Origin: Candidatus Helarchaeota archaeon
GTDB lineage: Archaea; Asgardarchaeota; Lokiarchaeia; Helarchaeales; RDOG01
Length of the DNA: 64,000 nucleotides
Direction of reading: 5' to 3'
NCBI GenBank assembly: GCA_019058315.1
Contig: JAHPZH010000005.1
Coordinates: forward strand, 96,001 to 160,000
A model generated the notes under the pieces. The model did not search any database, was not told where the DNA came from, and was given only the letters and a program-made list of their open reading frames with translations. Numbering within the stretch: the stretch's first letter is position 1; the number at the start of each line of letters is the position of its first letter. The position numbers and the translations under genes are program-made. This document shows, in pieces, positions 1 through 58,127 of this stretch.

Positions 1-2934
1 AAGAGATGTTTCTGGGAAATTGAATCGAACACTGACCATAGATATTGGGTTTACTGAATCAGTTAAAATTAAACCTAATTTTGCACCCGGCGTACTAGAA
101 CCCCCAAAGCATCTATGAACAACACTTGGACCGCTTGATTTGCCAGCGACTGAATAAAAACCATAACCTGAACCTGAACTTGTGGTAATACCAATTGTTC
201 GTTTATAATCCTTAGTGAAAGATCCTCCCCTTAACATCAGCGCTTCTTCTCCAATATAATATTCACGTGAATAATGTTCGACATCGGTCATAATTGACAT
301 ATATTTTGGATACCCTACTATAGTGGGAAGCACAGAACGAGGACCATCTTCTCCTGCAAAACCCGCATAACTAAAATTCGATCCTAATTCCAAACAGATG
401 GGGTTTCCTTTTGGATCTTTGTATACTTTCGGTTTTACCTTTTTGAGAGATTTGAATTTTATATCAATTTTTTGAATAAATTTTTGTATTTGCCTTTTAG
501 AATCACTCTTTATCAACATTTCATTAAGAACTGCTTTTATTTCGTTTGTAAGGGGAGAATCTTTTGTACAAATTGTATTAAAAATCCTTTCGCTAATATT
601 AATTAAACATTCATCTTCTTGTTCCTTTGTAATATGACCCTCTTTTGATAACTGATGAATATCTGTAACTATTTCTTGATACAAATCAATATTATTATCA
701 TCGATTTGGCTTATCTCATCTTCTGCAGCTATCATTAAGATGTTATTATCATTTACTAGAATCAAACTTTCAGAAATAATTTTTAAAATATTATAAATGA
801 GAGTTTTACTGTTTTTTTCTTTATTTTTTTCTGCAATTTCTTGAATAAGTTCAATTATTTTCCTCTTTACAAGCCTATGATTAACATCTTGTATCATCCC
901 AGCTTTCTTTGTAATTCTTAGAAATTCAAGCCCTGTACCAACTAACTTAGGATTGAGATAAATATAGTGAATTAGTGCATCTAATAGTGCATTAAAATAT
1001 GGTCCATATTCTTTTGTATCCCAACTCAATATTTCTGAATTATTTTTCTTGATAAATTCCTTTTTAAAAAATATTTCTAATGGAGTTTCAATTTTTCGTC
1101 CTAATTGGAGAACAGATGCATCAACTAACATAGCACCTAAGCAGCATGCTATAGCTTTATCATCTTGTAATATTTTAACTTGAAAATTAGCCTTATTACC
1201 GGGTTGATAAGTGCTTTTATCACTTTCAATATCAATTTTTAGCTCTTTTCTCTCAGGATTTACGTAAATCTTTCTTTCATTTTTTTCTAGGATACCATTT
1301 GATCTAAAAGCATATGTTATAACTTTTAAATTACCCCACATCTTTCTAGTGATTGGAATTTTAAAATCCGCCGTTCCCTCAGTTGCAAGCTTCACTGTTC
1401 TATAAATTATATTCTCCTTCTCGATATCGACATAGATAGGAATATTCTCCCTATCAACAACTGCATTTAAATGTAAAAAATCGTTAATATTTAAGCTAGG
1501 GGATTCTATGTTTGTATTAAGCCATATTTTTGGGTTTTCTTTTTCTCCTTCTTTCTGCTCTTTTTCTTCTTTTATTACTGCTTTTTCAACAGTCAGTCCT
1601 TTGCGGACTGTTTTGGATTCATCTAATAATTCCGATTCAATCATGATATTAATATCAAAATTCTTCTTTTTCTCTGTAGGATAATCAATTTCAAAAGTTA
1701 AGGGACATCTTCCTTCATTATCTGTTTTTGCTACTTTGAATTTTGCATGGTGTTTCAGCTCAGTATCATTTATCGAAGCTAAAACAAAACACTCGTTTAA
1801 TGGGACTTTTTTATTTTCTAGGGTTGGAACTTCTGTTTTAATTATTACTTCTGCTTGTTGACCTGGTTCAATACTTCTCGCCATATCTGTTGTTACGATC
1901 AAAGCTTGCTTTACTGTGCTAATTTTTATTTCCTTATTAGCTTTGCGTTTTAAACTGTCAGTAAGTTCAAATATAATTTTAGATTCTCCCTCTTTCATTT
2001 CAGGAACTTGGAACCTATAAATATATTCTCCTTTTTCATCTGTTTCCCCATAAGTTTGGAGAATTTGTTTATTTTCTGGTGATATAATTTCAATTTTAGC
2101 ATTGGCTTTTTTCACGGGTGCTCCGTAAAAATATTCGGACTTTAATTCGAGTCTAAATTCGTCCCCTATTTTTAGATATTCTGGTTCACATTTTACTTTC
2201 AATTCTATGTCTGGTGGTTGATAATTCTCGATTTTAATTGATTTTTCAGATTTAAAACCTTTAACCGAAACTTTAACTTTATAAACTCCTTCTATTGCCT
2301 CTTCAGCTATTGGAATTTGAAGTTCTCCTATCCCAAATTTAGAATCACATGAAATTTTTCTAATAAGTATCCTATTATTTTGTGGATCAGTTAATGTTAC
2401 TTTAATAGGCTCTTGACTTGGTTGATAAGTACTTCCTAACAGTTTCCAAAGGATAAAACGAATAAGTATCCTCTGTCCTGGCATGTAATAATCACGATCT
2501 GTAATCATATAGCATATATATTCTTCCTCTTTTCTGGTAAGATCCAACCTCAAAGTTTTTTCTTTTCCATCAATTTTAACCTTAATTTCATAAAATTTAT
2601 ATTCAGCATCAAATTCAAATTCCAATGAACCTAAATTATCTGTTAATCCCTTAAAAACAGTTTTATTGCCGTTGATCAACTTTACTTTACAATTAATGGG
2701 AAAAAAGTTCTGATCCATACAAATAATACGGCCAGAAATTTTCTCACCTTCTTCGAACTCCGAATTCATTTTAACAAAAATAAGTGGGGGTTCCCTTAAA
2801 TTCGAAATTTGACTGATCAGACTTTGAACTTTCTCAACATCTATTGAAGTTATTTGATTAAGAATATCCACATCAAGTTTATCTTTTTCTTTAATATTGA
2901 GGAGCCTTTTTAGTTTTTTACATGTTGTATCCAA
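1..2934 (-). CDS. Alpha-2-macroglobulin-family (MG-domain) protein, 3'-truncated by the window edge, with actin- and GTPase-derived peptides in the bait-region position
   Basis: Hand translation gives 978 stop-free codons from TTG at 2934 (SD-like AGGTGGT at 2947-2941) to base 1. A2M motifs occur in the expected order: MG2 ITDRDYYMPGQRILIR, ENYQPPDIEL, EYFYGAPV, SDKSTYQPG...LVDASVLQL and post-bait VRFNFPETSL. No N-terminal hydrophobic segment. Not in the supplied ORF track. Confidence 0.88.
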   Translation of the reverse strand, partial: MDTTCKKLKRLLNIKEKDKLDVDILNQITSIDVEKVQSLISQISNLREPPLIFVKMNSEFEEGEKISGRIICMDQNFFPINCKVKLINGNKTVFKGLTDNLGSLEFEFDAEYKFYEIKVKIDGKEKTLRLDLTRKEEEYICYMITDRDYYMPGQRILIRFILWKLLGSTYQPSQEPIKVTLTDPQNNRILIRKISCDSKFGIGELQIPIAEEAIEGVYKVKVSVKGFKSEKSIKIENYQPPDIELKVKCEPEYLKIGDEFRLELKSEYFYGAPVKKANAKIEIISPENKQILQTYGETDEKGEYIYRFQVPEMKEGESKIIFELTDSLKRKANKEIKISTVKQALIVTTDMARSIEPGQQAEVIIKTEVPTLENKKVPLNECFVLASINDTELKHHAKFKVAKTDNEGRCPLTFEIDYPTEKKKNFDINIMIESELLDESKTVRKGLTVEKAVIKEEKEQKEGEKENPKIWLNTNIESPSLNINDFLHLNAVVDRENIPIYVDIEKENIIYRTVKLATEGTADFKIPITRKMWGNLKVITYAFRSNGILEKNERKIYVNPERKELKIDIESDKSTYQPGNKANFQVKILQDDKAIACCLGAMLVDASVLQLGRKIETPLEIFFKKEFIKKNNSEILSWDTKEYGPYFNALLDALIHYIYLNPKLVGTGLEFLRITKKAGMIQDVNHRLVKRKIIELIQEIAEKNKEKNSKTLIYNILKIISESLILVNDNNILMIAAEDEISQIDDNNIDLYQEIVTDIHQLSKEGHITKEQEDECLINISERIFNTICTKDSPLTNEIKAVLNEMLIKSDSKRQIQKFIQKIDIKFKSLKKVKPKVYKDPKGNPICLELGSNFSYAGFAGEDGPRSVLPTIVGYPKYMSIMTDVEHYSREYYIGEEALMLRGGSFTKDYKRTIGITTSSGSGYGFYSVAGKSSGPSVVHRCFGGSSTPGAKLGLILTDSVNPISMVSVRFNFPETSL

Positions 2935-56296: not shown

Positions 56297-56839
56297 TCAA
56301 ATTCCTTTATGTATTGATTTTTGCCAATATTCAAATGCAAGTTTAGCCAATTCATTAAAAGCCTCCTCCACACCTTGACCTTCTTTGGCTGATGTTTCAA
56401 TATAGGGACAAGGAACTTGGTCTGCAAAAGATTTTGCATCTTTTTCACGTATAGTCCTCATAATCTCCAGATCCACTTTATTTCCAATGAGAACTATGGG
56501 AATCCTCCCTGTAAAGCTCCAAAGATCCTTTATCCATTTAAGAATATTAGGACTGAATGTTGTATAACGAGTTAAATCAAAGACAACTAAAGCTCCTGAA
56601 GCTTCTTTATAAAATGCTTGGCGTATAAATTTAAATCTTTCTTGTCCTGCAATATCCCAAATGGAGAGAGTTATTTGATTCTCGCCATTATTGAGGGATA
56701 CATCCTTCACAAAGAGGTCACAACCTACAGTCATCTTATATTCCTTTTGAAAGACATCATTGACGAATCTTTTAATCATAGTGGTTTTTCCAACAGCTGC
56801 ATCCCCTATCAATAAAATTTTAAATTTATATCTTACCAT
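56297..56839 (-). CDS. Rab-like small GTPase
   Basis: FKILLIGDAAVGKTT, YKMTVGCD, IWDIAGQERF, GNKVDL, ETSAK; ATG at 56839; no C-terminal Cys. Confidence 0.93.
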   Translation of the reverse strand: MVRYKFKILLIGDAAVGKTTMIKRFVNDVFQKEYKMTVGCDLFVKDVSLNNGENQITLSIWDIAGQERFKFIRQAFYKEASGALVVFDLTRYTTFSPNILKWIKDLWSFTGRIPIVLIGNKVDLEIMRTIREKDAKSFADQVPCPYIETSAKEGQGVEEAFNELAKLAFEYWQKSIHKGI

Positions 56840-56855
56840 TTTAAATACTCGATTT

Positions 56856-58127
56856 TTATTTTTTCTTCGTTGAAAATGCAGCATAAGCTTTTAAATATAC
56901 TTTAACCGGGATTATTTTTGGATTACGTCTAAAACTAGCCGGAATTTGAGCACCACAGCGAGAACATAAATCAGAACTTCTAAGCCAATCTTTAAATGCG
57001 TCTGCATGGGCAGGATGTTTACAATTAGGGCATAAGATTATACCCCTTCCTTTATCTGAAGGTTTAGGTAATTGAAAACAGAATATGCATTTAAAATCCT
57101 CAACGGTTATTACTCCTGCTACTGGCAATAATTCTTTTAATTTTCGACTAATTTGAGGCTTTTTTTTCTGATCAGGCACTTGAACACGGGATTGCCTTTG
57201 AACTCTTGTAATTCGAACTGTGGGTTTTTGGCGACGAGGTCTTGATACAGTAACAGTGGGCTTTTGACTAGGGCGACGATTTGTTGGAATATTTGATCTT
57301 GGTCTAATAGGGGTTCTCCTTCGTGTAGTTGGGATATTAAAATCCCTTAATTGTGGAGGAGGTCTCATTTCTGTAGTTATCTCTGGCATAGTATAGGGTG
57401 CAGTTGATTTCCCATACCTAATTGATAAAATTAATGAATAAATACATAAGAAAATTACAATTAAACTAGGATTTTGGTGAGTAGGTTTCAATGGAAAATA
57501 AAAAAAGTCAATATAATAATAAAAAAGGATAAGATAGACAAATTCAACCATAAATATATAAAAAGTACATAGATTTCCAAACTTTCTACCAGTTGTCGAT
57601 TTTTGGCCTATATGGACTACGTGATATTTTTTAAAACATGAATATAGTGAATATAAAGAATAAAGAAAGTAGGGAGCGGCAAATATAATATTCCATGTAC
57701 TCAAATATAATTCGCTCCCAGTCAAGATATTCCATTCCAGAATATTAGTAAAATTACCCCACAAGCTAAATAACATTCCCATAGATAGCGTGCCGGAAAT
57801 GAAAAAAGAAGTATTATGTGGTGAATTGAATTCACGGTGGTATTTTATTAATGAGAAAAATTTGATAGTAAAACAAAACCAAAATCCTATCAATAACCAA
57901 GAAATAAACAGAGCGGAAACATTTCCGATAGCTCTATTAAATTCTAAAGAAAAATAAAGAATATATACAAACACATTTATTGTATTTAAATTGAAATAAT
58001 CATAAATTATCATAAAAGCTAGAAATGTGAGATAATCGTTCTTCGATACAATTAAAGAAGTGGTATTTATTACCGCAATTATTAAAAAAAGCAAAAATAT
58101 GATAAAATACCATCGTTTTTTAACCAA
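56856..58127 (-). CDS. Polytopic membrane protein with C-terminal RING-like finger (putative E3 ligase)
   Basis: About 7 TM helices, Arg/Pro-rich linker, CIFC...CPNCKHPAH...DWL...CSRC; inside the ubiquitin-like operon. Confidence 0.8.
   Translation of the reverse strand: MVKKRWYFIIFLLFLIIAVINTTSLIVSKNDYLTFLAFMIIYDYFNLNTINVFVYILYFSLEFNRAIGNVSALFISWLLIGFWFCFTIKFFSLIKYHREFNSPHNTSFFISGTLSMGMLFSLWGNFTNILEWNILTGSELYLSTWNIIFAAPYFLYSLYSLYSCFKKYHVVHIGQKSTTGRKFGNLCTFYIFMVEFVYLILFYYYIDFFYFPLKPTHQNPSLIVIFLCIYSLILSIRYGKSTAPYTMPEITTEMRPPPQLRDFNIPTTRRRTPIRPRSNIPTNRRPSQKPTVTVSRPRRQKPTVRITRVQRQSRVQVPDQKKKPQISRKLKELLPVAGVITVEDFKCIFCFQLPKPSDKGRGIILCPNCKHPAHADAFKDWLRSSDLCSRCGAQIPASFRRNPKIIPVKVYLKAYAAFSTKKK

Follow-up and report, generated by a model that had tools for sequence, protein, structure and literature searches.

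Switch-I look-alike of host small GTPases in the actin-containing bait of an Asgard archaeal alpha-2-macroglobulin-family protein

We describe here the unusual bait region of P0002, an alpha-2-macroglobulin (A2M) family protein encoded by Candidatus Helarchaeota archaeon (GenBank assembly GCA_019058315.1), and in particular a short peptide within it, FTKDYKRTIG, that resembles switch I of the host's own small GTPases. The DNA analysed, referred to as the window, is a stretch of 64,000 nucleotides of contig JAHPZH010000005.1 (positions 96,001 to 160,000). The N-terminal 978 residues of P0002 are encoded at positions 1 to 2934 on the minus strand, and the open reading frame (ORF) continues past the window start to give a 1650-residue product (gene G000:C2:93982-98934). 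The protein has Pfam matches to MG2 (2.9e-15), A2M_BRD (9.9e-12) and Actin, and precomputed domain matches to A2M, TED_complement and bMG10. It thus has both the macroglobulin (MG) domain array and the bait-region domain by which the A2M family is recognised, a family with 11052 matches in a search of protein representatives. The GCVEQ thioester is intact, GC[VT]EQ is invariant across five aligned members, and P0002 belongs to the thioester proteins of the A2M family. Neither a signal peptide nor a lipobox is present in P0002 or its aligned relatives, whose N-termini are hydrophilic and without a hydrophobic stretch (as judged by eye rather than with a predictor), so that P0002 is apparently cytoplasmic. 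There is no paralogue in its own genome and no orthologue in 40 related genomes, in which only actins and a few distant A2Ms of ~2000 aa were found. Five full-length relatives that are 56-61% identical to P0002 (P0004, P0005, P0006, P0007 and P0157) were recovered from large protein collections and contig scans.

The P0002 bait is ~350 residues long, extending from the bait-region domain (which ends near aa 611) to the motif MVSVRFxFPETSLW at aa 966, and its parts are arranged in the order helical bundle, actin residues 6-67 with the D-loop, and short peptides linked by Gly and Ser; all are encoded on the minus strand. The helical bundle forms the first 200 residues of the bait insertion (aa ~640-828; window ~450-1015) and is predicted by AlphaFold2 (AF2) with predicted local distance difference test (pLDDT) values of 80-94. 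It has no paralogue in the genome, and a fold search with the bait model returned generic helical-repeat matches only (Z<=8.8). The actin fragment (aa 843-903; window 226-408) matches Pfam Actin and corresponds to host actin residues 6-67 including the D-loop; it is 67% identical at the protein level to the genome's own actin (L002:1438-2574), and the DNA is 76% identical over part of its length. The fragment ends in LRGG (aa 901-904; window 223-234) where host actin has LRGV; LRGG is also present in P0007, and other members have LGAGG or LGGAG. LRGG is the ubiquitin C-terminal motif and a target of deubiquitinase-type proteases. Many unrelated metagenome contigs align at window 242-312 alone, with 80-90% identity; this segment encodes the actin D-loop core, whose DNA many Asgard-like organisms have kept in their actin genes.

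The distal bait tail, from the actin fragment to MVSVRFxFPETSLW, is 62 aa long (aa 904-965; window 40-225), hypervariable (15% identity), and predicted to be unstructured (AF2 pLDDT 21-32). FTKDYKRTIG lies within it at aa 906-915 (window 190-219, from the translation) as part of an extended switch-I-like 16-mer, GSFTKDYKRTIGITTS (aa 904-919; window 178-225). A 25-aa module, DYKRTIG...SVAGKS (aa 909-933; window 136-210), overlaps the decapeptide, and is followed by GPSVVHRCF (aa 935-943; window 106-132), which is identical at eight of nine positions to the actin C-terminus GPSVIHRCF (score 52, equalled by 0/2000 shuffles; proteome-wide E=0.027). Beyond it lies AKLGLILTDS (aa 951-960; window 55-84).

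The likeness to switch I is evident from several comparisons. A Ras/Rab-like GTPase in the same window (56297-56884, minus strand; Pfam Ras 1.5e-49) has the switch I sequence FQKEYKMTVG, and the preliminary description, in noting six of ten identical positions plus the D/E and I/V pairs, was correct. The genome encodes 80 small GTPases, and among these are better matches to the decapeptide, FTPDYKSTIG and FQKDYKMTIG (each 8/10); over a longer span, GSFTKDYKRTIGI of the bait is identical at 9/13 positions to GAFQKDYKMTIGC of a host GTPase. The bait peptide GSFTKDYKRTIGIT reproduces the host Ras/Rab-like consensus F-x-x-[DE]-Y-K-x-T-[IL]-G over 14-16 residues, from the end of helix alpha1 to the switch I Thr/Gly, and it contains the linear G2/switch I motif F-x3-Y-x2-T-[IL]-G with its invariant Thr. 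The likeness of GSFTKDYKRTIGITTS covers the end of helix alpha1 and G2/switch I and stops after TIG.

With a 14-mer position-specific scoring matrix (PSSM) of 59 host switch-I sites the bait scores 14.4 bits, which is reached by one other non-GTPase window in 1.655 million; with a smoothed 16-mer PSSM it scores 17.0 bits, which is reached by 0/1.63 million non-GTPase proteome windows. A hidden Markov model (HMM) of the host GTPase domains gives the bait 6.0 bits at positions 26-39, with no equal among 2000 shuffles, and none of 300 shuffles of a 32-aa bait segment matches any GTPase as well. A family-blind comparison, in which no family is named beforehand, places 10-12 of the 25 top matches in a single family, the GTPases, and the rate at which any family is so favoured in 400 shuffles is 0.25-0.5%; single-linkage grouping at E<1e-8 had chained 679 ORFs into one giant family, and stricter cut-offs were used instead. 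By each of these tests (PSSM, shuffling, HMM and family coherence) the host GTPases match far above shuffled expectation, which is the outcome that the preliminary description had left to be established. The 14-mer that outscores the bait with the first PSSM, RKFEPEYVFHLGAQ, is at residue 114 of an unlisted ORF (G000:C5:278074-279198, plus strand), which may encode a divergent GTPase-like protein.

The peptide is nevertheless a look-alike of one GTPase loop and not a GTPase. The P-loop and NKxD are absent from the bait tail, and the only other possible GTPase features are AGK (for AGQ) and a YYRG element in relatives. When the six tails were scanned against Pfam with E values allowed up to 10, no family and no Ras domain appeared, a result of little weight as HMMER filters discard such weak matches. 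We regard the bait module as probably truly GTPase-like, either by descent or by mimicry.

Comparison with the relatives provides a view of how the bait has evolved. P0004 is labelled Freyarchaeota (gene L027), P0006 is labelled Lokiarchaeia, and P0157 (L028) is from Candidatus Jordarchaeum madagascariense; scans of metagenomes and of genome collections gave one locus each, L027 and L028. No shorter family fragments were found at E<=1e-10 with query aa 903-1200, and P0008 is a C-terminal fragment, 90% identical, on a 1.7-kb contig without the bait. Near-identical strain contigs cover window positions 93-203 (X3) and 200-440 (X7), but are uninformative in that no difference is listed in 190-219, and most others match only 242-312; among the public sequencing runs that carry the sequence, none of RNA is listed. 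The actin 6-67 fragment is carried by all five full-length relatives, and among the six members it has a mean pairwise identity of 71% with no indels. The helical part (~216-217 aa) has a mean pairwise identity of 50% and the start of MG7 (45-46 aa) 83%, whereas the tail between the actin fragment and MG7 varies from 45 to 75 aa with a mean of only 15%. A2M bait regions are known to be hypervariable between conserved flanks, and we take this pattern in the alignment as the signature of a true bait.

The preliminary description had linked its proposal to the presence of switch-I peptides in homologous baits, and such peptides do occur. P0006 contains SDYKRSIGADS, the Jordarchaeum tail contains EFKSVVRHSIGVDL (F-x6-SIGVDL), and P0004 has a degenerate version, KLYSIGIDS. 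These copies were recognised by reading the tails, an automatic alignment having suggested that the relatives lack the motif, but two of them are also detected with the GTPase HMM at the same positions as in P0002 (26-40), with P=0.005 against shuffles for the P0006 tail and P=0.004 for that of Jordarchaeum. The best GTPase of Jordarchaeum itself has FKEDYKMTIGVDF, to which the bait counterpart is FKSVVRHSIGVDL; a plain local alignment of this tail with the organism's own 17 GTPases is not significant (P=0.24), although the HMM test was. The 25-aa module of P0002 aligns locally with DYKRSIG...SKAGKS of P0006 with a score of 45 (P=0.0012 against shuffles). The three lineages retain different subsets of the GTPase consensus (F at -7 in P0002 and Jordarchaeum, DYK in P0002 and P0006, and G[AV]D in P0006 and Jordarchaeum), as expected under descent from a fuller GTPase-like peptide. 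P0006 YYRG provides an additional colinear HMM match at positions 66-74, corresponding to the YYRGA element after switch II of Rab-like GTPases, which hints that the ancestral module could have spanned switch I to beta4. We also note that a K(R/I)YY(R/K)GG element after the switch-I-like motif is common to the P0006, P0004 and P0157 tails.

P0002 and P0006 share DYKR[TS]IG, including an R that is absent from every host GTPase, and a single ancestral bait module, not two captures, therefore gave rise to both copies. The position of the module is not fixed, however. In P0002 the module precedes the actin C-terminal peptide, whereas in P0006 it comes later, and the actin peptide with its SS.PGA flank forms an independent alignment between the two proteins (P=0.002). 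Alignment columns and pairwise tail alignments suggest that AKLGLILTDS of P0002 is the decayed positional counterpart of KLYSIGIDS in P0004 and DYKRSIGADS in P0006. Given the difference in module position and this decayed counterpart at the P0006 site, the modules have been duplicated or shuffled. The switch-I-like module is thus old within a small Asgard clade, and has moved or been duplicated and is decaying at lineage-specific rates.

More distant A2Ms show which part of the bait is retained longest. The baits of P0012 and P0013 (28% identical) have neither the actin C-terminal peptide nor the switch-I-like motif, and what they retain is the actin D-loop core alone, GYPKYTSIMTDVEHY.REYY, which differs little from host actin. 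Of all the bait elements, the D-loop mimic is therefore the oldest and under the strongest constraint. Three other A2M representatives (P0015, P0017 and P0018, ~30% identical) have baits with long hydrophobic stretches resembling several transmembrane helices.

The nature of the peptide and its location suggest a plausible role. A2M baits, once cut, trigger trapping, and GSFTKDYKRTIGIT could act in this trap as a decoy for proteases that attack switch I. The peptide would be a pseudo-substrate for a viral, symbiont-derived or competitor protease directed against the switch I of host small GTPases, with cleavage expected within or directly after GSFTKDYKRTIG. Cutting of the bait at any point would cause the A2M conformational change, which would expose the CVEQ thioester and lead to covalent capture of the protease. 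The location of the peptide in a flexible, hypervariable bait tail, its GTPase likeness beyond chance, and the homology of the P0002 and P0006 modules favour this proposal, which we consider quite possible although somewhat short of probable.

Several observations weigh against it. The motif was spotted post hoc, and the best single pairwise match, with no family named, is not significant proteome-wide (P=0.06, equalled in 6% of shuffles). Of the real GTPases, 95% outscore the bait site (their median is 31.6 bits), because the likeness stops directly after TIG, where the bait has ITT and the GTPases have VDF. The motif cannot be recognised in two of the six members (P0005 and P0007) and is degenerate in P0004, and the DNA shows no trace of recent copying from a GTPase gene (27/42 nt identical). 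The AF2 model of the bait was built on a six-sequence alignment only. Finally, GtgE requires a folded GDP-bound Rab that it recognises through a large interface (PMC5752668), so that enzymes of this type may cut a linear 14-mer poorly.

A second type of explanation takes the module to be a genuine small-GTPase relic or mimic but gives it no part in decoying proteases; it might be carried as a neutral passenger in a fast-evolving linker, offer a docking or pseudo-substrate site to a guanine nucleotide exchange factor, a GTPase-activating protein, an effector or a modifying toxin, or simply act as a spacer between the actin fragment and MG7. The GTPase likeness itself has statistical support, and the decay or loss of the motif in P0004, P0005 and P0007, together with the decayed AKLGLILTDS of P0002, is consistent with selection that is weak or absent; strong conservation in the bait is seen instead at the D-loop core, the sole piece left in P0012 and P0013. 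However, DYKR[TS]IG has been kept between P0002 and P0006 in indel-rich tails that are otherwise ~15% identical, which argues for some constraint, and as an A2M bait is by definition a cleavable sensor, a peptide placed there meets proteases regardless of any other role. We therefore view a GTPase-derived module without a decoy function as rather unlikely.

Chance is a further consideration, since a Gly/Ser/Thr-rich hypervariable linker might by accident resemble the most abundant paralogous family of the genome, the 80 GTPases. The match is short, its best pairwise version has a BLAST E of 0.17, the HMM scores, at 6 bits or less, are low in absolute terms, and, as noted above, the peptide was found post hoc and the Pfam scans of the tails are empty. 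Set against this, none of the 1.63 million non-GTPase windows of the proteome reaches the bait's score on the switch-I profile, P is 0.0025-0.005 in the family-blind coherence test, and three diverged tails match the same HMM positions, each with a different subset of the consensus. A chance resemblance is accordingly improbable.

The remaining alternative concerns the origin of the peptide, and bears on the earlier proposal that it is an assembled mosaic rather than one decayed actin insertion. The decapeptide sits between two actin-derived pieces in colinear order, and it could in principle be an actin remnant that either continues the fragment (LNYPIGHGIV) or derives from the phosphate-2 loop (GRTTGLVCDSGTG vs KRTIGITTSSGSG), with internal deletions having removed the rest of a once complete insertion. 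There is some similarity of RTIGITTSSGSG to the actin phosphate-2 loop RTTGLVCDSGTG, but it is marginal (score 33, P=0.036), as is a colinear alignment with cheap deletions (P=0.0375); RTT-like triplets are present in other tails, as TRTTSSG in P0004 and DRTT in P0013. In every member, however, actin similarity breaks off at residue 67, and each of the four operons examined has a separate gene downstream that begins at actin residue 68, so that the rest of actin was never in the bait or left it cleanly. In BLOSUM62 sums DYKRTIGI scores ~35 against the GTPase consensus and ~9 against actin NYPIGHGIV, the phosphate-2 codons have a DNA identity of only 19/36 with no sign of a recent copy from an actin gene, and the homologous P0006 module has no actin similarity (P=0.96) but does resemble GTPases (P=0.01). 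With a signal that is marginal for P0002 and lacking for the homologous P0006 module, we reject an actin continuation or a phosphate-2 loop as the main explanation and regard a decayed actin remnant as very improbable.

The P0002 gene is followed by genes for two VWA proteins of 342 and 345 aa and an actin homologue of 308 aa (L024:6963-9966, minus strand; on G000:C2 just before the window start). The actin homologue starts with MVLRNTFPI, which corresponds to actin residue 68, the point at which the bait fragment (6-67) ends, and it is without the DSGTG and SGGST nucleotide-binding motifs. The same arrangement and split point are found in the other three operons examined, those of P0006, P0004 and Jordarchaeum, with the actin homologue starting MVL(R/K). 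The bait actin piece is thus one half of a split actin, and the bait fragment and the operon actin may reconstitute the actin fold on the bait. GPSVVHRCF is closer to the housekeeping actin than to the truncated operon actin.

The clean end of actin at residue 67, the location of the remainder downstream, the housekeeping-type C-terminal peptide and the GTPase-like module together support the interpretation that the bait is an assembled mosaic. The claim that FTKDYKRTIG represents a second and independent decoy fares less evenly: the likeness to switch I stands, as does the mosaic, for which module order and the split actin provide evidence, but independence calls for a qualification, in that the P0002 and P0006 copies represent one ancestral module. 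A broader proposal would be that this small Asgard clade has an intracellular A2M-type trap with several decoys (actin D-loop, actin C-terminus and switch I) that works with the VWA proteins and a trans-complementing actin body (68-end) to capture proteases attacking the cytoskeleton and trafficking GTPases. This would constitute an archaeal form of 'integrated decoy' immunity predating both defence by thioester-containing proteins (TEPs) and complement and the attack of effectors on Rab and Ras switch I, but we consider it doubtful in this complete form.

Cleavage of switch I by proteases is known from other systems. Salmonella GtgE cleaves the switch I of Rab32 between G59 and V60 (TIG|V) (PMC5752668), and Vibrio RRSP cuts switch I of Ras and Rap1 (PMC4468845), as the preliminary description had stated. 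Like the substrates of these enzymes, the P0002 bait carries Y-K-x-T-I-G, the stretch that is cut, but the bait peptide departs from them in having no GTPase fold (no P-loop and no DxxG) and in having ITT rather than VDF after the scissile glycine.

P0002 shares with human A2M, bacterial ECAM-type A2M and insect TEPs the MG array, the bait-region domain, CxEQ in the thioester domain (TED) and, between MG6 and MG7, a bait that is flexible and hypervariable. It differs from the characterised animal and bacterial A2Ms in having no export signal, and from known A2Ms more generally in the length of the bait (~350 aa vs a few tens), in the presence there of a folded helical bundle and recognisable pieces of host actin and GTPase, and in an operon that also encodes the VWA protein(s) and an actin without residues 1-67. 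A full-text search of a collection of papers found no archaeal A2M with such a bait, and we know of no archaeal or archaeal-virus protease of the GtgE/RRSP kind. An analogy can be drawn with the integrated decoys of plant nucleotide-binding leucine-rich repeat (NLR) receptors, in which a copy of a pathogen's host target is placed within a sensor and attack on the copy triggers defence. The comparison is one of logic rather than of kinship, since the families are unrelated, the read-out in P0002 would be proteolysis-triggered covalent trapping instead of oligomerisation, and the putative decoy is a short linear peptide and not a domain.

A2M baits are known as variable, generic protease-sensitive loops, and P0002 stands apart from its family in having no export signal, in how large its bait is and in the host-derived material that the bait holds. 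Without the switch-I-like peptide the bait would be read as an 'actin insertion'; with it, the bait becomes a 'mosaic of host-target peptides'. To our knowledge, proteolytic attack on such targets has been seen only between bacterial effectors and eukaryotic cells. If the proposed role of the peptide is correct, a bait built from pieces of host actin and small GTPases in an apparently intracellular protein would represent a new design principle for an old immune family, and Asgard archaea would have to contend with enemies whose proteases target their eukaryote-like cytoskeleton and GTPases, giving this conflict an earlier origin.

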